DNA of 48,272 nt from an uncultured Peptococcaceae bacterium (GTDB lineage Bacteria > Bacillota > Dehalobacteriia > UBA4068 > UBA4997). The stretch lies in NCBI GenBank assembly GCA_947626615.1, contig CANQSW010000001.1, positions 1-48,272 on the forward strand. The letters run 5' to 3'. Positions 14,712-30,264 of this stretch are shown here, piece by piece. The notes below the pieces were generated by a model. That model ran no database searches. It was given only the letters and a program-made list of their open reading frames with translations, and was not told the origin of the DNA. The stretch's first letter is position 1, and each line of letters starts with the position of its first letter. The position numbers and the translations under genes are program-made.

Positions 14712-14837
14712 TTTTTACCTCCGTTTTGCCGCAAAAAAAGCGCAGCCCGGTTTTGAACCCGGACTTACGCTCTAGCTGCACAGTTCGTTATTAATTTGCA
14801 TTACATATTATAGGTAGAAAAATTGTAAAAGTCAAGA

Positions 14838-14912
14838 AAAAAAGAGAGAAGTATCAGCCTGATCCCTCGGCGACACAGGCATTCTCTTCTCTCTTAAATA
14901 CTTAAAGGTTAC
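14838..14912. repeat. 75-bp direct repeat, copy 1 (left boundary of the island)
   Basis: aaaaaagagagaagtatcagcctgatccctcggcgacacaggcattctcttctctcttaaatacttaaaggttac is identical base for base to 30085-30159. The flanks outside the 75 nt are unrelated. Confidence 0.95.
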
Positions 14913-15061
14913 CTTATGTTGTTTATGGCAATTAATTCTAAGAGTATTATCATAGGTTCATCAAGTGCTGTTTTGCCGTGCTTTTGCTTTGTCCGTCAAC
15001 GGAATAATTGCACCTGCAGAATCTAGCATAACACCTAGCCGTTGATTTAAACGACTCTAAA

Positions 15062-15104
15062 AGCATAAGCCCTCAGAAAAGGGTTTATTCCTTTTTCGAG
15101 GGCT
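15062..15104 (-). terminator. hairpin terminator after the SLH/CAP gene
   Basis: 15-bp stem with one mismatch (15068-15082 pairing with 15090-15104) and a 7-nt loop. On the minus strand it is followed by TATGCTTTTAG. Confidence 0.5.
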
Positions 15105-15189
15105 ATACTGATATTAGCAGATATCGAACTATTTTGCAAAAAAACAACGTTCAGCATGCTTCGATAGCAGCTTTTCTGTATCTTTAGAT

Positions 15190-16308
15190 CTACTCTGCAG
15201 TCGCGTCCGGGTCAGTCGTGAATATCATGACCCACCAGACATATCCATCTGCATCCACGGAAACATCTATACCTGCTCTTGTATGAGTGGGATCCATGAC
15301 ATTGTCACGATGCGGCGGCGAAGCCATACAATCACTTACTAACAGATCCATATCAGCATAATGGATGCCGTAAGCAACGTTTTCGCCGCCCAGGACGTTA
15401 TCGTAGCCGACCTCCGGCAGGATCGTGCTCCAATCCCTGCCGTCTGGCCGCATATGCGGTGTTGGAGACCATTTCCATGCCACATCCTCGTCGATACGGA
15501 TTGCGGCGGCACGACATAATTCACCGTCCAGGATCGCTGGTTCCAGACCCTCCTTCGCTCGTTCAGCATTGAACTTCTCCAGCAATTGTTCGGGCAAAGT
15601 GCTTTGGTCAAAATAATACCAGCCTGCTTTCACCGGCGTTTCGCTGCGGCCATGCTCGTCAACAAAATTTGCTATCCTAACATATACGGAAGCAGCCTCG
15701 GCACGTGTCATATAGCCATAAGGATTGAACGTCATATCAGTGTTACCGGAGAAAATACCTAACTTGCAAGCCAACGTAACACGAGCTGGCCAGCCGCGAG
15801 TAAACTCCATATCATCATAAAGAGGTATAACGTTTTGATATTCCTCTGCAGGCGGTAAAGAACCTAACGAATCCAGAATGCTGTAAGAGATAGCTGCCGC
15901 CTTACAACGGAATATCGGGTCGGAGCTTTGCATGTTCCAAATATAGTTCAGACCATATTTTATGCAGACGTAATCGGTCGCGGTATACCATTCGTCACCC
16001 AAATTCAGGTCAGAATCGGCTTCAGCAGCCGCCACCTCGTTTGGGTAGAAGGCTCGCATCATTATCGCGATATATTCCCGTTTGGTGAGCTGGGCACCGG
16101 GGTCGAAAAGACGCTGCCCATTTACATCGGTGCCAACTCCCTCAATGGCACCATCGGCATAAGCGCGCTCTATATCACTATATGCCCAGTGTGTTTTAGG
16201 TACGTCCTTAAAAGTAGTCGGCGCTGCAAAAGCAGAAGTTGCCATAGTAATCACGAGCACCACTGTCAACAGCGTACAGATGAGGATCTTTGTGTTTTTA
16301 CTATGCAT
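15190..16308 (-). CDS. secreted SLH-domain protein with C-terminal CAP/SCP (PR-1-like) domain
   Basis: Signal peptide MHSKNTKILICTLLTVVLVITMATSAFA. SLH motif FKDVPKTHWAYSDIERAYADGAIEG. C-terminal ...ELCRAAAIRIDED...GENVAYG...HRDNVMDPTHTRAGIDV resembles CAP/YkwD-like domains. RBS AGGAGG. Confidence 0.7.
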   Translation of the reverse strand: MHSKNTKILICTLLTVVLVITMATSAFAAPTTFKDVPKTHWAYSDIERAYADGAIEGVGTDVNGQRLFDPGAQLTKREYIAIMMRAFYPNEVAAAEADSDLNLGDEWYTATDYVCIKYGLNYIWNMQSSDPIFRCKAAAISYSILDSLGSLPPAEEYQNVIPLYDDMEFTRGWPARVTLACKLGIFSGNTDMTFNPYGYMTRAEAASVYVRIANFVDEHGRSETPVKAGWYYFDQSTLPEQLLEKFNAERAKEGLEPAILDGELCRAAAIRIDEDVAWKWSPTPHMRPDGRDWSTILPEVGYDNVLGGENVAYGIHYADMDLLVSDCMASPPHRDNVMDPTHTRAGIDVSVDADGYVWWVMIFTTDPDATAE

Positions 16309-16390
16309 GATTTGAGTGCCTCCTTTTTAGGAATTTTTTCTTGAAATGTCTTTGATCAAAACAGTATCTGTCAATAGTAAGACGACCATC

Positions 16391-16419
16391 CACCGTTCTT
16401 GTGTATCACAAGAACGGTG
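16391..16419. other. perfect 13-bp stem / 3-nt loop hairpin between the two SLH genes
   Basis: CACCGTTCTTGTG-TAT-CACAAGAACGGTG. There is no U-tract on either strand, so it may be a processing or stability element rather than a classical terminator. Confidence 0.5.
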
Positions 16420-16508
16420 AGATTATCCATTCTTTAGATCAAGTTATCGTTTGTTGTATCCCATCCTACTATATGCGGTATTATAGCAGCAGCTGTTTTG
16501 CAGGAGGT

Positions 16509-19490
16509 TTATTGGTTGTTTTGTACGAAGCGCATCATGATCGTTGCGATCTCGGCACGGGTCGCTTTACCGCCGGGATTCAGCGTACCGTCAGAGTTAC
16601 CGGCGATCAATCCTTTGGTATTAGCCCAAAGGATAGCGTCTTCAGCCCAGCCGCTTACCTTATTGTAATCTTTGAAACTGCTGCAAACGTTTCTGGCCTG
16701 AGCCTGATCGAATTCGGTATCGTAGCCGGCCTGCTCAGCATAGCGATAAAGTATCGCCGCCAATTCCTGACGGGTAATATCGCTGTTAGGAGCAAACTTG
16801 TTCTCACCGACACCGTTCACGACATTGCCGTTTGCCGCCCAATCGACTGCCTGAGCATACCATTGGTTCCTGGATACATCGCTGAAACCGACCGCCGTGG
16901 TGCTGGGCTGTCCGGCCATGCGATACATCACGGTAACGATCATAGCACGGCTGGCGTTATCGTTGGGACCAAAGATACCATTGGAAACTGCGCCCATCAG
17001 GTTCTCTTCAGAAGCCCACTTTACTGCACCGGCATACCATGATGTGACTTTTACATCGCGGAAGTCGCCTACATAGGAAACGCTGTTGTTAACAGCAGTA
17101 TTGTTGGCGGCAGCCTTTTCGGCAGCAGCTTTTTCCGCAGCAGCCTTTTCGGCAGCAGCAGCTTTTCTTTCTGCAGCCAAATCGCGCTCCACCTTGAAAT
17201 TTCCGTTACCATCAACGGAACAGAACACGGGAAGATCACCACCACCGTAATACCATACCGCTTTGCCGTCGATCTCAATAGGCTGACAGTCAGAGAGGAA
17301 AGCATCAGCGGTATAGATCTTGCCGCATCGACCGTCTCCGTCAACAATGGTATATTTGAGGGTTCCGGTGGTATTACCTTTAGCGTGCTCATTCCACAGG
17401 AGAACGAACTTGTTATTAGCGATCTTCACCAGCTGCGGGTTGCCTGCTGCGGCGATCTGACCGTTGGTATAAGAAGATACCTGATATTTCTTCACACCGC
17501 TCTTGGTCAAGTTATCTTTGTCCACCGCATAGATCACGATGTTATAGGCATTACTGCTGTCAAAGTTGCCGCTCTGTTCATCGATTGCACCGGCGATAAG
17601 ATAATTGGAACTGCTTTCCTCAAAACCGCCCAGTTTGAAGCCGGTAGTACTTTCGCCGATACCGCCGACAAACTCCTGTACGTTCAAGATCTCACTGTTT
17701 TCGCCGAGGAACTTCTCCTTGCCGGCGGCACCGTTAAAGCGTACTATGACAGCAGCCCGCGGATAACCGTCGCCGTGGTCCAATGTTACGATATTAGCGT
17801 TACTGTCAGCCAATATAAACTGGTTGAAGGAATGGGATACGTAGCCGTATCTGAACTGAACCACCTCATAGAACTTGTCAGTCAACTTCATATCGCTTTG
17901 ACGCAACACCAATGTCATGTTGGCCTGGTGGCAAAGACCGTCTGAGCTTCTGTACATTTTATGGCAGGTATGGATCAAAAGTTGGTCGCCGGCCTCGGTC
18001 ATACGCAGACTGCCAAAATCAAAGGGAACAGAGGTATTGGCGCCCATAAGACTGAACTGATCCAGTCTCCGCCAGTTTTTGTCATATTTTACGACACGAA
18101 TAACTTCCACACTGTCAGAGAAGGAAGGATTGCTCTGTCCAAATACCATAAAGTTATACATCTGACCGCTATAGAAGCCACCAAAGATAGGTAATTCCTG
18201 GTCGATCTTCTGAGATGTCAACAGATTAAATTTAGGATCGTAGTTTTCTATTAATACCTTTTTGCCATTACCTTCGTTAATAGCTTCAACACGAGTAAGA
18301 TTATCGTCTGCTCTTTGATACAGATAAGACCACACCGTCTTGCTGGGGAAGCGATAATACTCATTCTCTATAGTGCTGTAAGAATTGTTGGCGACAGCAT
18401 TAGGATCAGCCACTATAGGATCTTCTTCCGGGGCATCCAGCCGCGGTATCGTCTTAGTATAGGTATCGCCGCAGGTTTTACAAGTATAGGTCAGTTCGCC
18501 GTCATGGGTCGTAGTGGCGATCCTAGTCACCTTTTCCTCATATTTATGGCCCAGAGCGTTATAGGTCGAAATGACCTCACGTTCACCGCACTTTGTGCAC
18601 ACGCGGCTATAACTGCCCTCTTCCGTACAAGTGGGCTGGGTCGTCTCATATTTCCAGCTGTGATAGGTGCATTTAGGCGTCTCGGTCTTTTCGGTATAGG
18701 TATCACCGCAGACCGTGCAGGTATAGGTAGTGATACCATCTGCTACAGTCTTTCTATACTTGTGGCCGGTAGCTTTATAAGTCGTAATGACTTCACGTTC
18801 ACCACACTTTAAGCACACACGGCTATAACTGCCTTCTTCAGTGCAAGTGGCCCGGGTCGTTTCATATTTCCAGCTATGGGTACATTTAGGTGTCACGCCC
18901 TGTTCGATTTCGGCTTCGGTTTTAAGGCAGTTAGCACAGACACGGGTAATGACACCATTTACCTCAGCCTCTACAAATCTGTGGCCAAAGGGTGTGTAAG
19001 TCTCGACGACTTCATACTCACCGCAGACCAAACACGTACGTGTATAATTGCCGCCTTCCGTGCAGGTGGGATAATTCTTCTTATATTTCCAGGAGTGTTC
19101 TATGACGGGAAGCGTCTCAATTTTCTCCACAGTGCCGCAGACGCTGCACTTGCGCTGAACATAGCCCTCCTTAGTACAAGTCGCTTCTACTCTTTCTTCC
19201 TCCCAGACATGCTCACAGACAGTAGGCTGCTCCTGTTCCAATGGAGGTGTAGTTTCTGGTGCAGTCTCTGTCGTGTTTCCGCCCTGCGTTCCGGTATCGC
19301 CGCCTCCCTGAGGATCTCCCTGTTCAGAGGGCGTTCCCTCCTCGGGGCCGTTTTGCGGAGCTGTATTAACAGACGGCTCTGTTGTTGTGCTGCCGTTAGT
19401 CCCATCGGATTCTTCAGCCAGCGCTATCGAAGAAAACAGTATAAACATCATACCGACCAGCAAAATAACAGCAAATGTTCTCTTTCTCAT
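16509..19490 (-). CDS. large S-layer-anchored surface protein: signal peptide, Cys-rich repeat modules, beta-rich central domain, AEKAA linker, three SLH domains
   Basis: 993 aa. MRKRTFAVILLVGMMFILFSSIALA signal peptide. Repeated HSWKYETT.ATCTEEGSYSRVC.KCGEREVI..Y...GHKY modules (residues about 92-347). C-terminal FRDVKVTSWYAGAVKWA, FSDVSRNQWYAQAVDWA and FKDYNKVSGWAEDAILWA SLH motifs. Confidence 0.8.
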   Translation of the reverse strand: MRKRTFAVILLVGMMFILFSSIALAEESDGTNGSTTTEPSVNTAPQNGPEEGTPSEQGDPQGGGDTGTQGGNTTETAPETTPPLEQEQPTVCEHVWEEERVEATCTKEGYVQRKCSVCGTVEKIETLPVIEHSWKYKKNYPTCTEGGNYTRTCLVCGEYEVVETYTPFGHRFVEAEVNGVITRVCANCLKTEAEIEQGVTPKCTHSWKYETTRATCTEEGSYSRVCLKCGEREVITTYKATGHKYRKTVADGITTYTCTVCGDTYTEKTETPKCTYHSWKYETTQPTCTEEGSYSRVCTKCGEREVISTYNALGHKYEEKVTRIATTTHDGELTYTCKTCGDTYTKTIPRLDAPEEDPIVADPNAVANNSYSTIENEYYRFPSKTVWSYLYQRADDNLTRVEAINEGNGKKVLIENYDPKFNLLTSQKIDQELPIFGGFYSGQMYNFMVFGQSNPSFSDSVEVIRVVKYDKNWRRLDQFSLMGANTSVPFDFGSLRMTEAGDQLLIHTCHKMYRSSDGLCHQANMTLVLRQSDMKLTDKFYEVVQFRYGYVSHSFNQFILADSNANIVTLDHGDGYPRAAVIVRFNGAAGKEKFLGENSEILNVQEFVGGIGESTTGFKLGGFEESSSNYLIAGAIDEQSGNFDSSNAYNIVIYAVDKDNLTKSGVKKYQVSSYTNGQIAAAGNPQLVKIANNKFVLLWNEHAKGNTTGTLKYTIVDGDGRCGKIYTADAFLSDCQPIEIDGKAVWYYGGGDLPVFCSVDGNGNFKVERDLAAERKAAAAEKAAAEKAAAEKAAANNTAVNNSVSYVGDFRDVKVTSWYAGAVKWASEENLMGAVSNGIFGPNDNASRAMIVTVMYRMAGQPSTTAVGFSDVSRNQWYAQAVDWAANGNVVNGVGENKFAPNSDITRQELAAILYRYAEQAGYDTEFDQAQARNVCSSFKDYNKVSGWAEDAILWANTKGLIAGNSDGTLNPGGKATRAEIATIMMRFVQNNQ
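17108..17178 (-). repeat. in-frame 15-nt tandem repeat encoding the (AEKAA)n linker
   Basis: gcagccttttcggca / gcagctttttccgca units. Translation is AAERKAAAAEKAAAEKAAAEKAAA, just upstream of the SLH triplet. Confidence 0.8.
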
Positions 19491-19625
19491 AATGTTTTTC
19501 CCTGCCTCCCCTGTAATAATATTTTTATTTTGTTTTGTTTTTCAAACAAAAACAAAACGCAAACGATAATTTAATACCAATATTTGTTATCGTCTAACTT
19601 ATCAGGTTGACAAACTTAAAAAGCT

Positions 19626-21767
19626 TCAATAGTCATAACTTCTGTATTTAGCCTCGTATACAGGGACTACATTATAAACATCATCATCAATTTTTCTTGT
19701 CTCGCCGTTTTCCCACATATAAAGCTCACCCTTGTGATAGTTAAGGTTATAATCATACAGATACAGAATACGTCCGCCGGGTATACTATAGAACTCGTAG
19801 ACATCATCTAAGGTCTCTACAATTTTACCATCCTGGTAGATCTTCAATGTACCATAAGCCTTATCGGCATTCCGATCTGTAAAATAAATCACTCTGTCGA
19901 AGTCACCACTCACTCCAACGTAATAGATATCTACACCGTGATCAATTTTTGTCTTGTTAATATAAAGTTCACCAATGTAATCTTTACAATCCTTGTAGTA
20001 TTGAAAATTGTCGCCACCTACAAAACAACAAAAACCAGTGTATACATTATTGTCATACAGCTCAGCTTTTCCAACAACGCCATTAGAAATAGAAATACGA
20101 TATAGATCACCGTAGTCTTTTTCGTCCGGAATATTGTCTAAATAGTAAACTACTGTGCCAGAAGAATTAATTTGAAATTTTTTGGCTTCCTTTACTTGTT
20201 CAATAAGCGTTGCGTTGTCTTTTACTGCAATATATTTATCTGACGAGGAGACTAAAGCAGCTTCAACCATTCCCTCAAGATCATAAATGTTTTTAACTTC
20301 GGAGAGTTTTACTTTTTCAAGATTGGATTGATTGTAAACTTCGTAAATAATAACAGGCTCATCGGATGCATAAGTACACTTATAAGTATAGCCATAAGAA
20401 TATTTATAGGCGCCACCCAATGCATCGGTGATTACGGTTGTCTCTGTGCCATTATAAAAGCAAAGAGAACTCCTAGGCCTCTCCATTTTTTTCCCTTCAA
20501 GGGAAGTTCTCAATTCGTCACGAGTTGCTTTTGCCCAATATGTCTCTAAGGCTGTAGAGTATTCCGTTTCCATACGATCATACTCGTTCTTCCAAGCCTC
20601 ATATGCATCTTCATATGCTTCATAAGCCGCATTATACTCAACATCAGAGCCATAGTCCCACCAGGAAGGAGCAATCGGAGCTTTAGGATAGTTAGGATAG
20701 CTCGGCTGTATCATAGAGTCATCAGCATCCTTCATGTCGTCTATTACATAATCCATCAGAGAAATCTCGTCGTCTTCACTGGTCAAGTAATAAATCTCTC
20801 CGGTTTCATAAATCTTAATCACATCATAAACGTTAGATGCGATTTTTACACTATCCTCACCTTCAACCTGCTTATATAAAGAATCTTCTTTAATGTAATA
20901 TGCAGTCTTTAAGTCGTTACTTAAGTATTCAAGAGAAGATACCTCACTTGCAATTTTTTCTTTGTCGTTATCTGCAGATTTACGATAAAAACTCCCCTCA
21001 GAATTGATATAAGCGATTTTTGTTCCGTCATCAGAAACGTTAAATTCTTTAACTTCACTGGCAATCTTATCCTTAGAGTCATCCGCAAGTTTATATTGAT
21101 ACAAACTTCCTTCTTCACCCTTGAGATAAGTAACAATACTTGTAGAAGTGTTTACGGTATAAGACTGAACATCAGAGTCGATCATAATTGCTTCGGATTC
21201 GGGTTTTCCAATCTCTCTGTAATAAAGATCGAACCTATACTCTTGACCGATCGTCCAGTAATTATCAATAATCTTATTGGGGAAAAAGATGTACTTACCA
21301 TCCTCACTCATATAAATACAGGCCCCTAAAGGTATATTTACTAAAGTTGTATTTCCCAAACCGCTATCATCGAGTCCAGAAGTCAACTGCAAAGCTTCGC
21401 TATCTTTCTTCAAATCAGAAAAGAAGATTTCGCCATCTTTTAAATAGAGCGCAAAGTCATTTTTAGCTTTACTTCCACTGGGCATCAGAGAGATCACGAG
21501 GATCAAAACTACTGCCAATGCTACGCCGATCCCACCAAATATAATTGTTTTTTTAGGAAACTTCTTCTTCTCGGCGAGAGCTGCAGGTCTTGCCTCGACA
21601 GGAACATCAGTTATTGATGCTCCACAACTTTGACAGAAAGCAAATTCGGTGCTTGTCTGCTTACCGCATTTAGGACAAAAAATAGTTTTATAAATCTTAG
21701 CACCGCAACCGTCACAGAACTTTACATCATCATTCAATTCCTTGTTGCATTTAGGGCACGTTATCAT
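19626..21767 (-). CDS. double zinc-ribbon / single-TM protein with large repeat-containing (propeller-like) ectodomain
   Basis: 713 aa. N-terminus CPKCNKELNDDVKFCDGCG then CPKCGKQTSTEFAFCQSCG. TM IIFGGIGVALAVVLILVISLM. Three 37-aa repeats each contain KIAS(E/N)V, and the C-terminal half is Tyr-rich. RBS GGAGGA. Confidence 0.8.
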   Translation of the reverse strand: MITCPKCNKELNDDVKFCDGCGAKIYKTIFCPKCGKQTSTEFAFCQSCGASITDVPVEARPAALAEKKKFPKKTIIFGGIGVALAVVLILVISLMPSGSKAKNDFALYLKDGEIFFSDLKKDSEALQLTSGLDDSGLGNTTLVNIPLGACIYMSEDGKYIFFPNKIIDNYWTIGQEYRFDLYYREIGKPESEAIMIDSDVQSYTVNTSTSIVTYLKGEEGSLYQYKLADDSKDKIASEVKEFNVSDDGTKIAYINSEGSFYRKSADNDKEKIASEVSSLEYLSNDLKTAYYIKEDSLYKQVEGEDSVKIASNVYDVIKIYETGEIYYLTSEDDEISLMDYVIDDMKDADDSMIQPSYPNYPKAPIAPSWWDYGSDVEYNAAYEAYEDAYEAWKNEYDRMETEYSTALETYWAKATRDELRTSLEGKKMERPRSSLCFYNGTETTVITDALGGAYKYSYGYTYKCTYASDEPVIIYEVYNQSNLEKVKLSEVKNIYDLEGMVEAALVSSSDKYIAVKDNATLIEQVKEAKKFQINSSGTVVYYLDNIPDEKDYGDLYRISISNGVVGKAELYDNNVYTGFCCFVGGDNFQYYKDCKDYIGELYINKTKIDHGVDIYYVGVSGDFDRVIYFTDRNADKAYGTLKIYQDGKIVETLDDVYEFYSIPGGRILYLYDYNLNYHKGELYMWENGETRKIDDDVYNVVPVYEAKYRSYDY

Positions 21768-21825
21768 TGCGTCATCCTCCTACATACAAATTATAAAACT
21801 GCTTTGATTTGTGTAAAGATATCTC

Positions 21826-22446
21826 TTATTCTATAAGCAGAAGTTTCCATTTTCCATTTTCTTTTGTCATCGTAATTTGAACCAGCATATCAACAGATTC
21901 CTCTCCTTTTTTTGCAGTAATCTCTATATCTGCACCCTTAACTTGCGATATAGTACTAATATCAAAGTCCGGATAACTTGATTCTATTTCATATAATAAA
22001 CTATCTAACTTTCTTCCGGAGATCGTATAAATCTCCTGTATATCATAGCTCAGCTTGTAGTTGTGCCCTACAGATGATTCAAAGAAATCCAAATCATCCC
22101 CTACATTATTCTCGAAATAATACTCGACCCTGTCTACACTGTCATAATAAAATATATCGCTTGACAGATCAACCAGCGTATCAATATCATACTTCTCATA
22201 TGCAGTCATCACTTGCCGCAGCAGTCCATTGTACCCCATGTATTTTGGAACGATATTAAGTGCAATCACAACAACTACGATTAAAGCAATCGCCCCAACG
22301 AAAAGCTTAATTTTTGTTTTGGTTTTTTTCTGCTTTTTCTGATCTTGAATATCTGTTGATACTCTGTCAACCGGCGTTCCGCATTGATCGCATACATTGG
22401 CATCATCTGTCAATTCAGCACCACAATTACCACAAAATTTCGACAT
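21826..22446 (-). CDS. zinc-ribbon / single-TM protein with small ectodomain (NTF2/DUF4878-like guess)
   Basis: 206 aa. MSKFCGNCGAELTDDANVCDQCGTPV, Lys-rich linker, TM LFVGAIALIVVVVIALNIV. The ectodomain ends ...ITMTKENGKWKLLLIE. RBS GGGGAGGT lies inside the 3-prime end of the upstream gene. Confidence 0.75.
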   Translation of the reverse strand: MSKFCGNCGAELTDDANVCDQCGTPVDRVSTDIQDQKKQKKTKTKIKLFVGAIALIVVVVIALNIVPKYMGYNGLLRQVMTAYEKYDIDTLVDLSSDIFYYDSVDRVEYYFENNVGDDLDFFESSVGHNYKLSYDIQEIYTISGRKLDSLLYEIESSYPDFDISTISQVKGADIEITAKKGEESVDMLVQITMTKENGKWKLLLIE

Positions 22447-22453
22447 AAGTAAT

Positions 22454-25258
22454 TTACCTCCCCGCGTTTCTTCTTTTTACTTTATGCACAGTTATTACAA
22501 CAAACAGCAAGCATAGCAAACTGCAGCCGCCTATAACAAAATAAGTAAGCTTGCTTTGCTTAATCTCCTCACCATAACTATTTTCCCCTGCACGTAGTCG
22601 CACATCATACTTCCCATCGCCATTCTCATCTATGTTTAGAGTACTTTGATCAGAAACAGCTGCTTTTGTATCAATGACAGTCTTTTTTGTAATCTTGACA
22701 TTTTCAAACCGTCTAAGATCACTATAATTGCCATTATCATCCATAAAACCGATAGTATAGTCCATAATTCCATGTCCTGTACCGATAAGTTTTAAATCGT
22801 AATCAGCGCCTTCTTTTAATCTTAGAACTTTTACCCTGTCATCAATACCGTTTGCTAAATCTTCTTCGTCTTGTTCAAAAGAAAGTGTGCCGAAATCTGT
22901 TCTAAGATTCAGATCTTTTTCAGAAGAGCTAAGTGTTTGCCCTTCATAAGTAACAGATACATCTACAGGACAAGCGATCCGTACATAGATATATTTCTGC
23001 CCGTTGATCTGATCTGCCATATCCCCAAAGAAGAACATTAAATCATCTGCATTTGCCACTTCATAGTGGCAACCATCACTGGCAATCCGCTCCATTAGTT
23101 GTTGAGCAAATGATTTATAGCCTCCCAGATTTTCAAAAAACCCTAATGTGTAAATAAGAACTCCATCTTTTTTTATCTCATCCGCATAATCAACGAGATC
23201 GTCACCCACTTTACCGTTGTTTGGCTCTCCATCGCTCATAAGCACAATAATTTTCTTTTTGGCAGTACTGGCACTAAGCATAGAATGCGCTTCCTTTAAA
23301 CCCGCTTCAATATTTGTCCCTCCACCAGAATGAATATCAGATACGATACTTTCAAGAGATTCTTTGTTCAAAGAAAAGTCTGAATTGCGATTGGCGTAAT
23401 TGTCATATGTGACTACGCCTATACTTGCATTCTCCTCAAGAATTGTATCAATAAAGTTTACGGAAGCCTTGCGAGTCTCCTCAATTGGCCTCCCTGACAT
23501 ACTGCCGGAAACATCAAGGACAAGTACAATATCTCTTTCATCATTATTAAAAACAAAATTTTCTGCACCTTTTTCTCCAAATATTAGAGGGGTAGCAACT
23601 TCTTCTTTGTTTCCATATTTACTATCGTTTTCACCATATTTCTTTTTGGCCATTGCAAGCGCTTCTCCTAATGTGTAAAGCCTCCCAGTTTTCTCATTAT
23701 AATGTGTCATATTTTCTAAGGTTGCATTTTGAACTAGTAAATTATAATCGGTACATATTGTTTCCGAATTAGCAACTACTGCTTTGGCTCCTTTTCTCAA
23801 AAAAGAATCTGCTAATACGTTATCTTTTCCACTCTGACAAGCAGCAAGATAAAGAAATGTACCGTTTAAATTGTTACAATATTTATCGATGTATTTTGAT
23901 GTAAATGCCACATTGCCATTAAGACATTCTACAATTCGATTTTCCATATTATCAAGACGGTAATTCGAATCCGACTGAAATGCATCATAATCAAATTCTT
24001 CACCTGTTAAAAGATACGAATGTAACGAATCGGAATATCCGCCATGCCCGTGCCAAATTATTACCTGATTTTCAGATAATGCTTTTATCTTATTTAATGT
24101 AACTTCTTGATTGTCATAATTATTTTCTGCATTAAACTTATACAATGACAATTTTTCGCTTATCTTTTCCGCTGATAAGTCAGGCAAGATCATGTACTCA
24201 TTCATTTCTGATGAATATGTGTTTAAACATGGTTGAAACGTGAATACAGAAATATTGACATTTTCACCTATAGCATCTATGCCATAACGCTTTGGCAAAT
24301 ATATATATGTCAGTCCATTCTTAAATTTAAGTAGGATTGAATTATCTGACACTTCATAATACAATACATCTCCGTTTTTATATAGATTTTCTGCATACCC
24401 TTCGACTTCTTCCATTACAGCAGAAAGATCACTTTCTTTGACATAACCATCGTCACCACAAAATGTTTCTTCTATTGCTATAATATTTGCTTGAATTTTT
24501 TGAATTTCCGATACAGATTCTTCAGTTGGCCTCTCAAAAAAATATAAGTACACCATTTCTGAAATATATTCTTCAGTTTTACAATAATAGCTTTTAGAAC
24601 CCAACTCTGATACAACGGATATCGTGTTAGCATAGATTCCGTCTCCAGCAAACGAATCTCCATTTTTGCCATTATCAAACATTTTGCACACTATTTTATC
24701 ATCTGAATATTCATACAAATCTACATAATCTGGTTTTTTACCTTGTACAGAAACTGAAAAAACAACATTTACCTGCTCATTTTCCCAGAAACAATTTTCA
24801 TTTGATGTAAAATTCTCCAGCAAACTATCATCATCAGTTTCTATATCACGTTCATTATTATTTGGCAACAGTTCAACACGATCGATTATTTTTTCTATTT
24901 CAGGTATATCAACTATGTCAAAATACACAAGTGCACCAAGTGCAGCTATTACAAGCACAGCAATCAACAGAATAATCAAAATTAACTTAAAGAGAAATCG
25001 AAGAATCTTTTTGCTAATAGACAATCCGGCTCGTTCTTCTTTCTTTTCAGTTTTAATTTCTTCCTTACGTTGTTTTCTAGCTTCTCTCTTGCTAAACCGT
25101 TCTTCAGTAGATGCTGACCGATGATTGTTTGTTTCACCTTCATTAGATGCTACAGGCCCTGGCTTCTGTACCTTCTTTAATTCATCTGCGTTGCAGTTTG
25201 GACAAAAGCCCGTATTTTCATCCAACTTTGCGCCACACTTCCCACAAAATTTTACCAT
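22454..25258 (-). CDS. zinc-ribbon / TM / clan-CD-like His-Cys peptidase-like domain / vWA (MIDAS) domain / beta-sandwich / C-terminal TM anchor protein
   Basis: 934 aa from the ATG at 25256-25258 (RBS GGAGGAGG; the track ORF extends spuriously to 25384).
- MVKFCGKCGAKLDENTGFCPNCN zinc ribbon
- TM LFKLILIILLIAVLVIAALGALVYF
- VIIWHGHGGY (DNA about 24041-24060) and FLYLAACQSGKD (about 23830-23850) resemble a caspase/gingipain His and Cys pair
- DIVLVLDVSGSMSG...GGGTNIEAGL...IIVLMSDGEPN is a vWA MIDAS pattern (about 23000-23533)
- C-terminal LTYFVIGGCSLLCLLFVVITV followed by HKVKRRNAGR. Confidence 0.8.
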   Translation of the reverse strand: MVKFCGKCGAKLDENTGFCPNCNADELKKVQKPGPVASNEGETNNHRSASTEERFSKREARKQRKEEIKTEKKEERAGLSISKKILRFLFKLILIILLIAVLVIAALGALVYFDIVDIPEIEKIIDRVELLPNNNERDIETDDDSLLENFTSNENCFWENEQVNVVFSVSVQGKKPDYVDLYEYSDDKIVCKMFDNGKNGDSFAGDGIYANTISVVSELGSKSYYCKTEEYISEMVYLYFFERPTEESVSEIQKIQANIIAIEETFCGDDGYVKESDLSAVMEEVEGYAENLYKNGDVLYYEVSDNSILLKFKNGLTYIYLPKRYGIDAIGENVNISVFTFQPCLNTYSSEMNEYMILPDLSAEKISEKLSLYKFNAENNYDNQEVTLNKIKALSENQVIIWHGHGGYSDSLHSYLLTGEEFDYDAFQSDSNYRLDNMENRIVECLNGNVAFTSKYIDKYCNNLNGTFLYLAACQSGKDNVLADSFLRKGAKAVVANSETICTDYNLLVQNATLENMTHYNEKTGRLYTLGEALAMAKKKYGENDSKYGNKEEVATPLIFGEKGAENFVFNNDERDIVLVLDVSGSMSGRPIEETRKASVNFIDTILEENASIGVVTYDNYANRNSDFSLNKESLESIVSDIHSGGGTNIEAGLKEAHSMLSASTAKKKIIVLMSDGEPNNGKVGDDLVDYADEIKKDGVLIYTLGFFENLGGYKSFAQQLMERIASDGCHYEVANADDLMFFFGDMADQINGQKYIYVRIACPVDVSVTYEGQTLSSSEKDLNLRTDFGTLSFEQDEEDLANGIDDRVKVLRLKEGADYDLKLIGTGHGIMDYTIGFMDDNGNYSDLRRFENVKITKKTVIDTKAAVSDQSTLNIDENGDGKYDVRLRAGENSYGEEIKQSKLTYFVIGGCSLLCLLFVVITVHKVKRRNAGR

Positions 25259-25346
25259 GGTACTCCTCCTCCCATGCATAACATTTTGAATCACAAAAAA
25301 GTAAAGACAGTGGTGTATTAATGCTATCCACTGCCTCTGCTCGTCC

Positions 25347-25631
25347 TTATCCCATATATTTATCGATAAGTTTGTCACCAACAAGGAAGGAGATCATCCC
25401 CAAGTTGATTGCTTCGGCACCAAGAAGGATAAAGATAATATTTTCAATGATGTCAATAACGCTGACTATCAAAGTGACAACACAGAACCATACAATCGTG
25501 CTAAACATTTTATCAACTACAACTATAAGATTATTGATAAAACCGATTGTATCAAAAATCAAGTCGTTACTATTAGCAAAGAAAAGAATAGTAACGGTAC
25601 TACTGACTTCCCAGCAGCCTTGTTCAACCAT
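25347..25631 (-). CDS. possible small hydrophobic protein (hypothetical)
   Basis: 94-aa ORF co-directional with the cluster, with hydrophobic stretches (STIVWFCVVTLIVSVIDII, IFILLGAEAINLGMISFLV). No convincing RBS. A plus-strand ORF of similar size overlaps it. Confidence 0.3.
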   Translation of the reverse strand: MVEQGCWEVSSTVTILFFANSNDLIFDTIGFINNLIVVVDKMFSTIVWFCVVTLIVSVIDIIENIIFILLGAEAINLGMISFLVGDKLIDKYMG

Positions 25632-25764
25632 TCATTTGTCGCAAACATAAAATGGATCCTGCCAAAATGACTATGTTCGCTAAGAAAACACATTAACCAA
25701 ATCACTACATCCAACAGACCAACATAAATTCTCAGACTCTCCCTTTTCCTCGGTTCATTATAAC

Positions 25765-26346
25765 TTATAACTTATTTCCACACTCAGTGCAGAAAATAGA
25801 GCTATCATCTACTTTTGCACCACATTTTGAACATACACGATCAAGCGTTTCAGGCTCATCCTCAGCTACAGTGACAACAGATGAAACAGGTTCCAACGGT
25901 TTTCCACAAGCCGTACAGAATCGCATTCCTTTTTTCACCATGGCACCACAATTACCGCACTTTACATAGTCAGCAGGATCGACCGTTTCGATCTTAGGTA
26001 TAGGTGCACCACATGAGCTGCAAAAAGCAGCATCCTTAGATAACTCTGCTCCGCACTTTTCGCAACATTGCACCCCTTTAATATCTTGAAGCTGCTTTTT
26101 ACAGTCATTTATCTTCGCTTCAGCATCAGCGATTGCCTTAATCATTTCTACGAATTCTTCTTTGCAGTCCTCTTTATGAATAGAAAAATACAATTTGCCA
26201 AGTTGACAGTATAGACTTGAAAGATTTTTCTCTTCTTCGTTAATTAATGAGTTAAGCCTTGAGGTATCTGCAATTTCTTTTGTTTTAGCAATAGTCTTTT
26301 GTCCCGTTTCAGTAACAGCTTTACTAATTTTATCAAAGAAAGCCAT
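25765..26346 (-). CDS. soluble coiled-coil protein with three C-terminal zinc ribbons
   Basis: 193 aa. N-terminal MAFFDKISKAVTETGQKTIAKTKEIADTSRLNSLINEEEKNL... is helical or coiled-coil by composition. Then CEKCGAELSKDAAFCSSCG, KCGNCGAMVKKGMRFCTACG and CSKCGAKVDDSSIFCTECG. No TM. RBS GGGAGGG. Confidence 0.8.
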   Translation of the reverse strand: MAFFDKISKAVTETGQKTIAKTKEIADTSRLNSLINEEEKNLSSLYCQLGKLYFSIHKEDCKEEFVEMIKAIADAEAKINDCKKQLQDIKGVQCCEKCGAELSKDAAFCSSCGAPIPKIETVDPADYVKCGNCGAMVKKGMRFCTACGKPLEPVSSVVTVAEDEPETLDRVCSKCGAKVDDSSIFCTECGNKL

Positions 26347-26370
26347 CGTATTACCCTCCCGTTTATGTAT

Positions 26371-26652
26371 TTACGAATTTAGCTCTTGGATCCCTTTATA
26401 ACAATCGTCGCAAACAAAAACTATTATTCCAAGACCAGAAGTATAGTGCTTTGTAGCTTTTCCGGAACAAAAGAAACATTCCGAAGAACAGTCTGCACAA
26501 TAGTACTCGTTTTCGCCTGTATATTCGTTTTTATACGCCTTTGTCGGAGTTTGACCACAGGACACACACGGTTCAGATGAACCACACGCTGAAAGAGTAA
26601 AGATCAACGCAATAAAAACCAACATAGCAATAGTTCGTTTAAGATAAATCAT
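26371..26652 (-). CDS. small Cys-rich lipoprotein
   Basis: 93 aa. Signal peptide with lipobox LSAC (…IFTLSACGSS). The mature part has 10 further Cys, including CVSC, CADC, CFFC and CDDC pairs. RBS GGGAGGA. Confidence 0.75.
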   Translation of the reverse strand: MIYLKRTIAMLVFIALIFTLSACGSSEPCVSCGQTPTKAYKNEYTGENEYYCADCSSECFFCSGKATKHYTSGLGIIVFVCDDCYKGIQELNS

Positions 26653-27705
26653 TCTTTTTTCCTCCCTTGATCACTACATTTTCTGACTGTGCATATAACG
26701 ATTTGTGTTTTAAAGGACTTGACATTTTCTTAATGAATATTCCGGTATGACAAGAGACGCTTTTTCAGACACCTCTCTTGTTTATATGTTTTGCCTAAAC
26801 CGATAATCTTTCGCGAAAATTTGAATCACAGCTCTTGGTGCATGCGCCGCTCGAAAACTACACCTGTCGCGTCGAATTTCTACATCATAGCCGCTGAAAT
26901 CCTACAGTTTCATGGCAGACCATATAGTTACAAGATTTGAAATATTTTATGCACCATATACTGCAGTCACCATGCACCATTTCGTCCAGCCAGAACGCAC
27001 CAAGGAATGCGGTCTAGCTTGCAGCACCAAGGCAGTGGACTTCAATGGCATTGTCCTGCTTGAGTGACGCGGCTGTTCAATCAAGCGACGAAGATGTTCA
27101 ATTACAGCGTCGCAATTGTTCATTTTAAACAACACAGAGGTTTGATATCGCTGTCTTACTCAGCAGAAGTGGCTCTCAAGTTCCGGAATGCTGGCTCTCA
27201 TCTACCGGACAGACAGCTCAATGACCTCCAAAATATTCATCCCGATATTGGAACGTAGAAAGTGCCATATTGTACTTTTTCACTGTCGCTAAGACAGTGA
27301 TCATCTTTGTATTTCCGAACTGCCAGATGCGGCAAAAGTACTATGACAAAGAATATGGCAACCATCATAGACACATTCTATAGGTTTTCGCCGCCACGAT
27401 GTTTACGCTTGATAATGTCTAATGTTGACGCGGATATAATCATAAATCGCTATCTCAGTCCCTTTTTCCAACACATACTATTAGTTTTGTTTTGTTCATT
27501 AATCAGATAAGACCATCCAAAACATCTCGCTTTGTAATTATGTTGTCCTTATGCAATAGAAAATCATGAGAAGCAATTTGATTATTTGTGCGATCATATT
27601 AAGCAGTTAGTTACCTACATTACTTCTTTCTTCAATGCGCCGTGGCTCTTCGATTACGGCGGCAAGTTCGTTCTACAGATCCATTACTGAATATAAAATT
27701 GTTCT

Positions 27706-27744
27706 AAACCAGAAAACCACTGGCTGGAAAGCCCAACCAATGGT
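27706..27744 (-). terminator. possible terminator after lgt
   Basis: ACCA(C)TGG 27716-23 pairs with CCAATGGT 27737-44, 13-nt loop. On the minus strand it is followed by TTTTCTGGTTT. Lies 16 nt after the lgt stop. Confidence 0.4.
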
Positions 27745-27759
27745 CTTGCAATATACACC

Positions 27760-28572
27760 TTATTTTCGGCTGGCGCTACGATTTTGATTGTCTAAAGTCG
27801 CACCACACTTATACGCTATTAATTTGCGAGACATACAGATAAAAGCAACTGCTAACAAAATAAAAATGCTAAGCCATTGCGAAACGGAAAACAACCCTAT
27901 TATCCCCCGCTCTTTATCATCATAGCGTAAAAATTCCAACAAAAACCGCAATATGGCATAGGTACCAAGATATATGTAAGGCATTTCTCGCAATCTTTTG
28001 CCTCTTAATACCATATACAAAAATATAGCTGCCAGGGAAAAATTAATAAATGCCTCTAAAAGCTGCACCGGAAATAGCGGCACACCGATCGGAGCATACG
28101 CCGGCGCATGATAAACAATACTGCCGATCCCGTCATAAGGTATACCATAGCAGCATCCAGCAATATGACAACCAATACGACCAAAACCATGTGCAAGAGG
28201 CACACAAGGAACGATTATCTCGGCATATTTTCTAGCGTTTATTTTATGTATTTTACCAGCGGCAAAAAAGGCTGTCAGACCACAAAGCAAGCCACCGTAA
28301 AACACATAACCACTTGCTAACAGTTGCTTCAGATAGCTCAAAGATGTCAAATGATCCCATTCTATCTGGTCTCTCAAAAGAAAAATACTTAAAGCTTTTG
28401 CACCCAAAAGCCCTCCGCATATTGCATATGCCCCTAGAATCAGCAGCTCATCGTCTGACAAAGCATATTTCTTTACCAGACAATAAGCTACTGCCGTTGA
28501 GACTATCAAACCTAATGCAACCAAACAGCCATAAAATGGAATAAACCTGCCAAACAGATAAACACCTGCCAT
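27760..28572 (-). CDS. lgt: prolipoprotein diacylglyceryl transferase (island-borne copy)
   Basis: 270 aa polytopic protein. Lgt signature motifs YGGLLCG, HGFGRIGCHIAGCCYG, FPVQLLEA and RFLLEFLRYDD. Its ATG directly abuts the TAA of the upstream gene. Confidence 0.88.
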   Translation of the reverse strand: MAGVYLFGRFIPFYGCLVALGLIVSTAVAYCLVKKYALSDDELLILGAYAICGGLLGAKALSIFLLRDQIEWDHLTSLSYLKQLLASGYVFYGGLLCGLTAFFAAGKIHKINARKYAEIIVPCVPLAHGFGRIGCHIAGCCYGIPYDGIGSIVYHAPAYAPIGVPLFPVQLLEAFINFSLAAIFLYMVLRGKRLREMPYIYLGTYAILRFLLEFLRYDDKERGIIGLFSVSQWLSIFILLAVAFICMSRKLIAYKCGATLDNQNRSASRK

Positions 28573-28830
28573 TTAGGGAGCAACTGCACCAAATGCAGCC
28601 AAGCCTCCCACACAGGAAGCACAGGCAACAACAAACAAAACGGAAAGTATCAAGCCAATGATAGAACAGACCAAGCCGGCTTTAGCCAGCGATGCACGTT
28701 CCGGCACTTTTTTCCCCAAAACGCCAAGAATGATACCAACAACACCACATATGGCACCAATAGGCAGACCAAAACCAAATACCGCTGCTACGATCGAAAC
28801 GATACCTAAAACCAACGATGCAATAGCCAT
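28573..28830 (-). CDS. DUF4190-like small Gly/Ile-rich membrane protein
   Basis: 85 aa, MAIASLVLGIVSIVAAVFGFGLPIGAICGVVGIILGVLG...LVCSIIGLILSVLFVV. RBS GGGAGA. Translationally coupled to lgt. Confidence 0.65.
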   Translation of the reverse strand: MAIASLVLGIVSIVAAVFGFGLPIGAICGVVGIILGVLGKKVPERASLAKAGLVCSIIGLILSVLFVVACASCVGGLAAFGAVAP

Positions 28831-28854
28831 TTTTATTCTCCCTTCAAATTAAAG

Positions 28855-29043
28855 TTACATTCTAGCAACACAATCATTCTTATCCAAAGTCAGAGCATAA
28901 TGTTCATTACCGGGCATAATCGATTGTATAAACCCTAAAGAACGCAGATACGTCAAAACCCTCTGTTGTTCTTTGAAATTTAATTGTAAAAACAATTCAA
29001 TAAATTCTTCTTCTTTGTTGTTCTGATTCGATTTTTGCCGCAT
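28855..29043 (-). CDS. hypothetical 62-aa protein, first gene of the DUF4190-lgt operon
   Basis: Good RBS (GGAGGTG, 5-nt spacer). Divergent from the XRE gene. No family recognised. Confidence 0.5.
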   Translation of the reverse strand: MRQKSNQNNKEEEFIELFLQLNFKEQQRVLTYLRSLGFIQSIMPGNEHYALTLDKNDCVARM

Positions 29044-29080
29044 AAAAACACCTCCACTTTAGGCAATGTGTTGCAAACAC

Positions 29081-29109
29081 AATATAACACAATTTGTTTG
29101 TGCCGTCAA
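29081..29109 (-). promoter_or_regulatory. promoter of the 62-aa/DUF4190/lgt operon
   Basis: On the minus strand: TTGACG (29104-29109), 17-nt spacer, TGtTATATT (-10 hexamer at 29081-29086). Confidence 0.55.
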
Positions 29110-29133
29110 CACTCTTCGACGATTTCTTTTGTG

Positions 29134-29162
29134 TTGACGAACCTTTTTTAATGTTGTATGAT
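29134..29162 (+). promoter_or_regulatory. promoter of the XRE regulator gene
   Basis: TTGACG (29134-29139), 17-nt spacer, TATGAT (29157-29162). Its -35 box is one arm of the 9-bp inverted repeat CGTCAACAC (29104-29112) / GTGTTGACG (29131-29139). Confidence 0.55.
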
Positions 29163-29209
29163 ATACTTGAAAAATATAAGTTGTAACTGGTTGGGGAGGA
29201 ACTGACAAG

Positions 29210-29566
29210 TTGAAAAATCGTGTTCGCATAATAAGAAACCAGCTAAATTTATCACAACGAGAATTTGGAGAGAAACTGGGCGTCAGCCGCGATGTTATCA
29301 GTAACATAGAATATGGACGAGTACAGCCTAAGGAGTTGTTACTGAAGCATATGTGCCAGCTTTTTAACGTTAATCCCGTTTGGTTGCATACAGGTAATGG
29401 CAAAATATTCTTAGACGAGCCCATCTACAACGAAAATCTTAAAGAGGCTATAAACATCTTCTCCCAATTGCGACCAGAGTTTCAAGCATACGCCTTGGAG
29501 CAGATACGCAATTTAGTCGAGTTGCAGGAAAAATACCCGCCGGATACCATGATAGCAAACAAGTAA
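29210..29566 (+). CDS. XRE-family helix-turn-helix transcriptional regulator
   Basis: 118 aa, TTG start after GGGGAGGAA. IRNQLNLSQREFGEKLGVSRDVISNIEYGRVQP is a classic HTH_3 motif. Confidence 0.85.
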   Translation: MKNRVRIIRNQLNLSQREFGEKLGVSRDVISNIEYGRVQPKELLLKHMCQLFNVNPVWLHTGNGKIFLDEPIYNENLKEAINIFSQLRPEFQAYALEQIRNLVELQEKYPPDTMIANK

Positions 29567-30024
29567 AATAGAAGAGCCAAATCATCACTCCCATATAATC
29601 AAACCAACTCCTTCCGTAGCTCAATTGCTTTTTTACCGCAACTTGCAAATGAGGTGCAAATCTTTTAAATTTACAACATTTAAAAAGTCTTTTAAAATGC
29701 AAAAAAAACATTGATTTGGTTTATATTATAGTTTAAAACTATATTTTAGGATCAGTAGATACAGAATGATTTTATTATCCATTCAAAACTTTCAGGATCA
29801 AAATTTTGCATCGCCTATCAAATGACAAGATTTGGTTTTTTACAGAATACCATTCTCTATCATGGCGATTTTTCAAACGGACATGAAAGAACGACAAATC
29901 ATTTTTAAAGCATCTGCATTTACTCCTACTATATATAAAAGGTAAAGAAAATGGATTTTCGGAAAAGTTTTTCCAAAAATTTTTATTTTTTAGTAATTCT
30001 TTTCGCCGACCTTATTCTTACCGC

Positions 30025-30076
30025 AAAAAATCAGCATATCTTTATGATCGGATTCATAAGGATACGCTGATTTTTT
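30025..30076. terminator. bidirectional intrinsic terminator at the right inner edge of the island
   Basis: A6-TCAGCATATCTTTATGA-loop-TCATAAGGATACGCTGA-T6. The core stem is 17 bp (1 mismatch, 1 wobble), flanked by A6 and T6 runs. Confidence 0.6.
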
Positions 30077-30084
30077 AAACCAAT

Positions 30085-30159
30085 AAAAAAGAGAGAAGTA
30101 TCAGCCTGATCCCTCGGCGACACAGGCATTCTCTTCTCTCTTAAATACTTAAAGGTTAC
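30085..30159. repeat. 75-bp direct repeat, copy 2 (right boundary; terminator-like element downstream of tuf)
   Basis: Identical to 14838-14912. On the minus (tuf) strand it folds as AAGAGAGAAG...CTTCTCTCTT (10 bp), enclosing an inner GCCTG/CAGGC stem, and is followed by T6. Confidence 0.95.
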
Positions 30160-30264
30160 TGTCGGCTGTCCAATAGGATACGACCCTCGGCATGAGCCAC
30201 ACCCTCACAACAGACCTTTATAAGCCAAACTTTTTTAACTGTTTTGATACTTTTGCTCCTACGA

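Follow-up and report, generated by a model that had tools for sequence, protein, structure and literature searches.

A candidate mobile surface-display cassette of gut and rumen Clostridia and its apparently decayed copy in a Peptococcaceae genome

In the genome of an uncultured Peptococcaceae bacterium (assembly GCA_947626615.1) a run of closely packed genes for lipid-anchored, zinc-ribbon and membrane proteins lies between tuf and rpsJ, within the rpoBC–str–S10 ribosomal region and, like that region, on the minus strand. We refer to the genes as A, B, M, D, E and F, and to the whole stretch analysed, which is the complete contig CANQSW010000001.1 of 48,272 nucleotides, as the window. Zinc-ribbon (ZnR) N-termini are extremely common on bacterial membrane proteins and have no assigned function, and the question that this locus raises is whether its ribbon-bearing proteins belong together, as was proposed in an earlier note made from the sequence alone, or are neighbours by chance. 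From comparison with related loci (identified here by L-numbers) we think it on balance probable that the cluster is a partly decayed, horizontally acquired copy of an undescribed cassette of gut and rumen Clostridia, devoted to mobile and phase-variable surface display.

The open reading frames (ORFs), their common strand and their close packing are as the earlier note described them, with 24 nt between A and B, 7 nt between D and E, and 58 nt between E and F; the junction of B and D is longer, at 506 nt. A GGAGG-type ribosome-binding site (RBS) precedes every cassette gene, and that of E (ggggagg) does lie within the last codons of D, as had been claimed.

Recurrence of the gene neighbourhood

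A scan of species-representative genomes recovered some 56 loci with a true B, almost exclusively from gut or rumen Clostridia, and these were annotated with home-made hidden Markov models (HMMs) together with a rule that recognizes a ribbon plus a transmembrane (TM) helix. At least one ZnR-TM gene lies downstream of B, and on the same strand, in 48 of the 56 loci; such downstream genes total 118, or 0.28 per kb, there is not a single one on the opposite strand, and the upstream flanks contain 0.022 per kb, an enrichment of about 13-fold. The association holds for B proteins with identities ranging from about 30% to 65%, and is seen in Oscillospiraceae, Lachnospiraceae, Ruminococcus, Acutalibacteraceae and Peptococcaceae; candidate carriers that can be cultivated include Ruminococcus bromii ATCC 27255, Lawsonibacter faecis NSJ-52, Pseudoflavonifractor phocaeensis An901 and Bariatricus massiliensis AT12. 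These counts are not counts of independent events, since common descent and horizontal transfer connect the loci. Pfam confirms the ribbon in 73 of the 119 array proteins, by which we mean the ZnR-TM proteins encoded in these loci.

Gene order is conserved as well. The neighbourhoods of D homologues and those of B homologues, on independent contigs, both show the order (A)–B–M–large 'D-slot' protein–E–further ZnR-TM proteins, and in L001, L002, L003 and L007 the E gene begins 1–10 nt after the D-slot gene. Among the 56 loci M adjoins B in 25; 23 contain a strong homologue of E, 10–15 contain A, and six a CHAT-like head of the kind found in D. The grouping that the earlier note had put forward is thus borne out, and its refuting condition, that the genes are never co-conserved, clearly does not hold: in many independent genomes and metagenome contigs B is accompanied by the ZnR-TM protein with a vWA domain, the NTF2-like protein and the Cys-rich lipoprotein. 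Text searches of the literature returned no description of such a cassette.

Could the cluster nonetheless be a chance pile-up of common Firmicutes ZnR-TM genes that have no functional link? Zn_Ribbon_1 and DZR N-termini are widespread in Firmicutes, and also occur without B, as do ZnR-TM proteins; ribbon-only matches turned up in both the genome scan and the viral search, and F and the flanking genes are specific to the window locus. However, the A–B–M–D–E order is kept in unrelated contigs, ZnR-TM genes accumulate downstream of B on one strand only, and the gap between D and E is 1–10 nt wherever both are present. A chance association is contradicted by these co-occurrence data, and we regard it as very improbable.

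Proteins of the cassette

The coordinates of the cassette genes, and of other features in the window, are listed in Table 1.

Table 1. Cassette genes and other features located in the window
Feature	Position	Strand	Description
A	26371–26652	–	93-aa lipoprotein; recurrent cassette member
B	25765–26346	–	Soluble 193-aa protein; hallmark gene of the cassette
M, putative pseudogene	25350–25747 (approx.)	–	Two-frame remnant; ORF 25347–25631 is its 3′ part
D	22454–25258	–	934-aa protein
E	21826–22446	–	206-aa protein: N-terminal C4 ribbon, Lys-rich linker, TM helix, NTF2-like ectodomain (predicted)
F	19626–21767	–	713-aa protein: N-terminal double C4 ribbon, TM helix, ectodomain of ~640 aa; locus-specific variable array member
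Low-GC interval tuf–rpsJ	14067–30264		16.2 kb, from composition profile and Pfam; holds the cassette and locus-specific genes
tuf	30265–31467		Flank of island
rpsJ	13680–14066		Flank of island
XRE helix-turn-helix (HTH) gene	29210–29566	+	Divergent from, and upstream of, the island operon orf62–DUF4190–Lgt
Second Lgt	27760–28572		Prolipoprotein diacylglyceryl transferase; 1.1 kb upstream of A
Two SLH proteins	15190–19490		Locus-specific island genes
993-aa SLH protein	16509–19490		Signal peptide, Cys-rich repeats, large central domain, three SLH domains
SLH–CAP protein	15190–16308		SLH protein with C-terminal CAP (cysteine-rich secretory protein/PR-1) domain
155-aa ORF	14244–14711		Follows the SLH–CAP gene

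B had been described as a soluble protein ending in three ribbons, and this is what we find: an N-terminal domain of about 92 aa (Bn) is followed by three CxxC-x10-CxxC C4 ribbons that score 79.8 bits against Zn_Ribbon_1 (PF13240) and 74.4 bits against DZR (PF12773), both above the gathering threshold, and zinc binding is predicted. There are at least 752 close homologues, the assembly collection lists 622 blocks for one B variant, and a profile of the ribbon-less N-terminal 92 residues retrieves 3,301 clusters at 50% identity. In these clusters Bn is always N-terminal and is followed by zero to seven ribbons (mode three), and just three of the best 150 contain a TM segment. Bn itself has no match in the copies of Pfam, NCBIfam and PADLOC that were searched, nor by sequence in PDB. 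We note that in L019 (positions 7663–10591; Agathobaculum sp.) two tandem B paralogues are interleaved with ZnR-TM genes, and that a version of the CHAT-like protein with a signal peptide comes after them.

The signal peptide of A ends in a lipobox (...IFTLSAC-GSS) in which LSAC meets the pattern [LVI][ASTVI][GAS]C, lipidation being predicted, and the mature part contains four CxxC pairs, in keeping with the earlier description of a Cys-rich lipoprotein. Searches of Pfam, NCBIfam and PADLOC gave no match to A; its homologues, with 53–70% identity, adjoin B in 15 other loci. The mature domain resembles two zinc knuckles yet is predicted to lie outside the membrane, and both metal coordination and disulfide formation are possible for its cysteines. 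Ribbon-like modules would then occupy both faces of the membrane, with A on the outer one.

Between B and D the earlier note had listed a possible small hydrophobic ORF, which proves not to be an intact gene but to be recognizable as the remnant of a conserved membrane protein, M. Intact M is a polytopic protein of 133–141 aa (typically 138) with three or four TM helices, ending ...DKLIDKYMG, and its homologues outside the window are, as judged by eye, about 75% identical among themselves. Comparison of a six-frame translation with the homologues in L001–L003 shows that M in the window is split over two frames, has no proper start and has a degraded TM2; tblastn returns two high-scoring segment pairs in different frames with about 34% identity to the homologues, and this was the only match weaker than 1e-20 in the M family HMM search. 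Judged by these features, the window ORF is a putative M pseudogene, frameshifted, start-less and diverged. In distant loci M is replaced by proteins with a ribbon and three or four TM helices, which we considered as M–ribbon fusions of the 'Rosetta stone' type and rejected, since the M HMM detects no homology in them with filters off.

The plan proposed earlier for D, E and F, of an N-terminal ribbon, a Lys-rich linker and one TM helix, holds for all three with the exception that D has a second, C-terminal TM helix. From its N-terminus D comprises a C4 ribbon, a Lys-rich linker, a TM helix, an Ig-like 'choice-of-anchor X' domain, a helical region, a CHAT/caspase-like domain, a vWA domain, a stalk of about 165 aa, and the second TM helix with a basic tail; because of this second helix the ectodomain is predicted to be held at both ends. 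The D ribbon, at 22.9 bits, is below the Pfam cut-off of 25, and the four cysteines are invariant across the 119 array proteins. The presence of a vWA domain (PF00092), as had been claimed, is clear (residues 576–736, 81.9 bits compared with a cut-off of 23.8), and the metal-ion-dependent adhesion site (MIDAS) motif DVSGS at residue 582 is intact (DxSxS), the downstream Thr and Asp having been read by eye.

The head of D was also called protease-like in the earlier note, and structure prediction agrees. An exact look-up of D returned no record, although the window protein itself was recovered by the homologue search. In a set of 5.8 billion proteins residues 150–572 have only some 25 homologues, and their AlphaFold (AF2) model (pLDDT 89.6) consists of the Ig-like domain, which reaches the 'choice-of-anchor X' cut-off (NF041940, 25.6 bits), helices, and an alpha/beta domain. 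The top PDB matches of the latter in Foldseek are Craspase TPR-CHAT (1e-5), DdvA (9.5e-5), separase and gingipain RgpB, with a probability of about 1.0; the TM-scores are low (about 0.26–0.31) because both the model and the targets are multi-domain. Two motifs, W402-H403-G404-H405-G406 (WHGHGG) and A473-C474-x-S476-G477 (ACxSG), vary little or not at all among 21 and 12 sequences respectively, and H403/H405 and C474 fall at the ends of consecutive strands (E249–255 and E319–324 of the model), as they do in caspase-fold enzymes. Residues 220–572 match no Pfam or NCBIfam family, including CHAT and Peptidase_C11, C13, C14 and C25, and no PDB entry by sequence profile. Because no curated family or PDB sequence matches, we interpret the modelled head as a new sequence family with a clan-CD (caspase/CHAT) fold, and as a putative peptidase.

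The D head is not a constant part of the cassette. Many nucleotide alignments between the window and other loci end at about position 23542, which is the boundary between the CHAT-like and vWA domains, and the vWA domain, stalk and E are 62–78% identical at the protein level in 20 loci regardless of the head that is present. The heads are CHAT-like in the window, L002, L003 and L023, a subtilase with its prodomain in L006, and a C-type lectin in L004 and L007. The comparison points to a conserved base (vWA–stalk–TM plus E) on which the head has been exchanged between loci. We note that a CHAT-like head is also found in an RHS-repeat protein, P0014. The ectodomains of the 119 array proteins include VWA (11), Lectin_C (7), DUF5050 propellers (5), Peptidase_M4 (5) and Peptidase_S8 (4), as well as YARHG, RHS, LRR and NPCBM domains, a repertoire that appears typical of extracellular binding and hydrolytic modules.

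The E ribbon scores 32.6 bits against Zn_Ribbon_1, and E has at least 305 homologues, nearly all of 210–211 aa. Its ectodomain has no sequence-level family match, nor a meaningful match in a sequence-profile search of PDB; residues 70–206 are however modelled by AF2 with a pLDDT above 90, and Foldseek aligns the model with the N-terminal NTF2-like domain of PBP2a (5e-4), the NTF2 domain of RsgI9, the NTF2-like SO_0125, KSI and the CaMKII hub. On the strength of this model we confidently predict that the ectodomain is NTF2-like, as the earlier note had suggested. The TcaA/YvbJ proteins of Staphylococcus and Bacillus share with E an N-terminal C4 zinc finger, a TM helix and type-II topology, and differ in having an unrelated ectodomain, which is large; because E scores only 22.4 bits against the TcaA model NF053815, for which the cut-off is 550, and aligns through residues 3–63 only (the first 65 residues of the model), it is not a TcaA member. 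TcaA is, to our knowledge, a single chromosomal gene with neither a B-like partner nor an array. In F, the ribbons score 38.3 bits (DZR) and 45.5 bits (Zn_Ribbon_1), and the ribbon region alone matches other loci, the ectodomain being unique to the window locus; for the repeat or propeller-like structure suggested in the earlier note the sole lead is a sub-threshold beta-propeller match (E = 0.011), and self-BLAST reveals no internal repeats.

The folds of D and E raise the alternative of a transmembrane signalling array, in which ZnR-TM receptors would sense a ligand or be clipped, freeing or rearranging the ribbon, with B as a cytoplasmic transducer or sink; a CHAT-like or subtilase head could be the clipping agent, with a logic similar to that of DdvA/DdvS or the RsgI/SigI arrays. 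The structural match between the D head and the periplasmic CHAT domain of DdvA, a transmembrane anti-sigma factor of Myxococcus xanthus (PDB 8rw5, 8rot), is in its favour. DdvA resembles D in its cytoplasmic zinc-bound N-terminal domain, single TM helix following it, and extracytoplasmic clan-CD CHAT domain with a His/Cys dyad, and is proposed to undergo autoproteolysis followed by signalling through regulated intramembrane proteolysis (PMC11506125). However, the zinc domain of DdvA is a CHCC three-helix zinc-binding anti-sigma (ZAS) domain that traps an extracytoplasmic-function sigma factor, whereas D has a C4 ribbon and no sigma factor, and DdvA contains TPR repeats but lacks the vWA domain and the second TM helix of D.

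The NTF2 domain matched by E is likewise part of an anti-sigma factor, RsgI9. RsgI proteins follow a plan in which many paralogous receptors have one common cytoplasmic module and differing ectodomains, and the array proteins, with their common ribbon, conform to it; as in the RsgI/SigI arrays of Clostridium thermocellum, the cassette encodes paralogous type-II proteins with a common cytoplasmic N-terminal module and varied ectodomains that include NTF2-like and peptidase-like ones. The presence of a divergent XRE HTH gene upstream, in both the window and L002, also speaks for signalling. Several observations nonetheless make signalling rather unlikely. The common module of the cassette is a zinc ribbon of the C4 Zn_Ribbon_1 type, and neither a ZAS (HxxxCxxC, zf-HC2) nor an RsgI_N domain, nor a SigI gene, is present in the cluster or its flanks; output domains, sigma factors and kinases among them, are absent from the window and do not recur in the related loci; B has no DNA-binding domain, and an HTH gene beside the cassette is not conserved. 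The RsgI/SigI genes are moreover dispersed sigma/anti-sigma pairs, whereas the cassette genes are united in a single operon carried by a mobile element, and control of such an operon by an invertible segment, described below, would be unusual for a sensory pathway. The repertoire of lectins, vWA domains, M4 and S8 proteases and LRR domains resembles effector and adhesin modules rather than sensors.

Mobile carriage, inversion and the window copy

Intact copies of the cassette are flanked by genes for a MobA/MobL relaxase, a primase/DUF5906 protein, large serine recombinases, integrases or PemK, and by this gene content the cassette is cargo of mobilisable elements. No Bn-bearing copy was found in the viral and plasmid collections, where the matches were ribbon-only or weak.

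In 12 of 57 loci a gene for a serine recombinase of about 200 aa lies directly upstream of the B cassette, and in eight of these 12 there are two sites with the core AAAGGT-GT/AC-ACCTTT, starting 12–21 bp after the recombinase stop codon and spaced by 126–155 bp in seven loci and by 383 bp in L016. The central dinucleotides of the paired sites are always opposite (GT/AC) in the eight loci, and the sites are therefore in inverted orientation. We searched a metagenome collection for the hybrid site that would be expected from inversion in the abundant L004-type element, and one low-coverage human-gut contig, L098, contains it: over the stretch that runs from the site to the end of M, with A and B between, L098 and L004 are 99.5% identical, and upstream of the site L098 has the inner segment reversed, joined exactly at the central dinucleotide via a hybrid site X-GT-Y′. 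Because L098 carries the flipped segment, inversion occurs in the L004-type element. The inner segments of different loci are too diverged for comparison with one another.

Long versions of the sites are located at 2819–2856 and 2955–2992 in L003, at 7467–7504 and 7621–7660 in L004, and also in L023 and L027. Each site in these four loci is a perfect palindrome of 30–40 bp, with outer arms that differ between the paired sites. The symmetry exceeds what recombination needs, and an additional role for the crossover sites as hairpins, terminators or operators is possible. A hand-picked promoter, TTGCTT-17-TAGAAT, was discarded as it fails the criteria of our promoter scan. In L016 a run of N (4513–4873) lies between the crossover sites, and we note that an assembler could leave such a gap at a segment that is present in both orientations.

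The window copy differs from these in both its setting and its state of preservation. A relative (L100), with an EF-Tu that belongs to the same 90%-identity cluster, has only 1.3 kb and a single DUF2798 gene between tuf and rpsJ, and hence the entire 16.2-kb interval separating them in the window is extra DNA. Genes A to F have a guanine-plus-cytosine (GC) content of 35–39%, compared with 51–57% for the flanking tuf, fusA, rpsJ and rplC, and form the most AT-rich portion of the interval; these comparisons argue that the cluster is horizontally acquired. GC content is stepped along the interval, being about 48–50% at 14.2–19.5 kb and 35–41% at 19.6–29 kb, which suggests at least two separate acquisitions at one spot between the str and S10 operons. 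No recombinase, tRNA or Rfam match was found in the window; tblastn with four cassette resolvases reveals no resolvase remnant anywhere in it, the 1.1 kb just upstream of A included, and the island contains no crossover site within three mismatches. With recombinase and inverton absent and M apparently pseudogenised, the window copy seems to be partly decayed.

The remainder of the island holds additional genes, some with relatives in the arrays. The start codon of the second Lgt abuts the stop codon of the DUF4190 membrane-protein gene (27760–28830), and Lgt-like genes that are 27–31% identical lie within the arrays of L016, L017 and L045; the island Lgt may provide dedicated lipoprotein maturation, or its presence may be a coincidence. 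The divergent HTH of L002 is immediately upstream of B, and is not homologous to the window XRE HTH by tblastn. The 993-aa SLH protein has five Cys-rich repeats of about 37 aa (C..W...C.....C..CG). A relative with 31% identity lies within the L030 array, and the ZnR-TM protein that ends L002 has similar Cys-rich repeats; it is because of these two similarities that we consider that the 993-aa protein may be an extra array member using an SLH anchor. The 155-aa ORF matches no family.

Mobile carriage also brings to mind a conflict system, in which the array on the cell surface would prevent phages from adsorbing or conjugative elements from entering, or deliver toxins to neighbouring cells, and phase variation would limit the cost. 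Such a role would fit carriage by mobilisable elements, the inverton that controls intact copies, and the rapid turnover of variable modules; a few array proteins have RHS repeats or an NADase-translocation domain, RHS protein P0014 has a CHAT-like head, and CHAT/caspase-like proteases are part of known defence systems such as Craspase. On the other side, PADLOC-DB 2.0 gave no match for any of the ten island proteins at E values up to 0.01, and no PADLOC model matches cassette proteins. The earlier note had remarked on the lack of an ATPase, nuclease, kinase or sigma factor, and Pfam and NCBIfam scans of the window proteins concur, with no NTPase or toxin–immunity pair either. No viral contig has a Bn-containing copy, and prediction places the protease domains on the outer side of the membrane, unlike the CHAT proteases of defence, which are cytoplasmic. 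We therefore judge a role in conflict to be improbable.

Surface display and its relation to known systems

The most likely reading, we conclude, is that the cassette serves as a mobile and phase-variable module for surface display. As reconstructed from the compared loci, a full cassette would consist of a small serine recombinase, an invertible segment of about 150 bp, A, B with one to seven ribbons after Bn, M, and an array of type-II proteins with the plan ribbon–basic linker–TM–ectodomain, of which the most constant members appear to be the head–vWA–stalk–TM protein and the NTF2-like E. The operon would decorate the cell surface with adhesive (vWA-MIDAS, lectin, LRR, NPCBM) and proteolytic (clan CD, S8, M4) modules, the ribbon-TM module anchoring the displayed ectodomains and D being anchored as a hairpin by its two TM helices. 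In intact copies inversion of a promoter would toggle expression ON and OFF, and swapping of heads and arrays between mobile elements would create variety. B, possibly with M and A, may act on the cytoplasmic ribbon handles and so promote assembly, clustering or stability of the array. The window copy, if it is expressed, would be a 'locked' version read from a local promoter.

A number of observations weigh against this interpretation. M adjoins B in only 25 of the 56 loci, A is present in 10–15, and the small recombinase is found in 12 of 57; because these are in the minority, the core beyond B and the ZnR-TM genes is a sub-type, and not universal. The number of ribbons in B and the number of ZnR-TM genes are uncorrelated (rho = –0.14, p = 0.38, n = 44). 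Surface exposure rests on topology rules, in which the basic linker and basic C-terminal tail are assumed to be inside. Inversion rests on one low-coverage contig, L098, all four loci with long palindromic sites being in the un-inverted state as judged by half-site symmetry, and consensus promoter scans do not assign the ON and OFF orientations. The RHS repeats and the F5/8 domain associated with NADase translocation in a few array proteins hint at antagonism rather than adhesion, and some arrays may deliver toxins. Finally, the window copy is possibly inactive because the switch is absent and M is pseudogenised.

A more specific proposal is that B is a multivalent ribbon scaffold, with M and A as its membrane partners, which binds the ribbon handles of interchangeable type-II proteins and so forms a surface complex, the whole being spread by mobile elements and switched by the inverton. 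This would be an intracellular counterpart of the cohesin–dockerin logic, and we consider it possible but doubtful. The ribbon counts of B, which a scaffold would lead one to expect to rise with array size, lend it no support, and no fusion of M to a ribbon turned up.

For the broader interpretation of mobile, phase-variable display, the closest known systems are the inverton-controlled surface-protein and adhesin operons, such as Clostridioides difficile cwpV, the Mpi-controlled loci of Bacteroides fragilis and those in the PhaseFinder catalogue. In these, as in the cassette, a recombinase gene lies beside inverted repeats that bracket a segment of about 150 bp upstream of a surface-protein operon, and both orientations occur in nature; invertons of gut bacteria are known to cluster near cell-surface genes (PMC11892184). 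The cassette differs in controlling an undescribed gene set (B, M, A and the ZnR-TM arrays), in having crossover sites that are themselves long perfect palindromes, and in being located on mobilisable elements, and the window copy differs in having no switch. D also has a likeness to the vWA adhesins of Gram-positive bacteria and to Bat-type proteins, in that a vWA domain with an intact MIDAS is predicted to be presented outside the membrane. However, it falls far below the cut-offs of these families (NCBIfam BatA, NF047508, 36.1 bits compared with 380, and through the vWA region only; sortase-target vWA, 33 compared with 552), there is no LPXTG-like motif before its C-terminal TM helix and basic tail, and pilin and Bat operon partners are absent.

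The cassette is therefore best classed with the mobile, phase-variable surface-protein loci, with core proteins (the Bn-ribbon protein, M, A and the clan-CD head) that are uncharacterised, the last of these being a putative new sequence family with a CHAT/caspase fold and a predicted outward orientation. The N-terminal zinc ribbons of bacterial membrane proteins would, with the Bn multi-ribbon family, gain a concrete genomic partner, and the purpose of the ribbon becomes directly testable. In the abundant gut Clostridia the cassette would be a mobile source of surface variation, phase-variable in some of its copies, and the lectins, the vWA domains and the proteases of three classes that it displays make it a plausible determinant of adhesion, of mucus or matrix processing, of immune recognition or of phage susceptibility.

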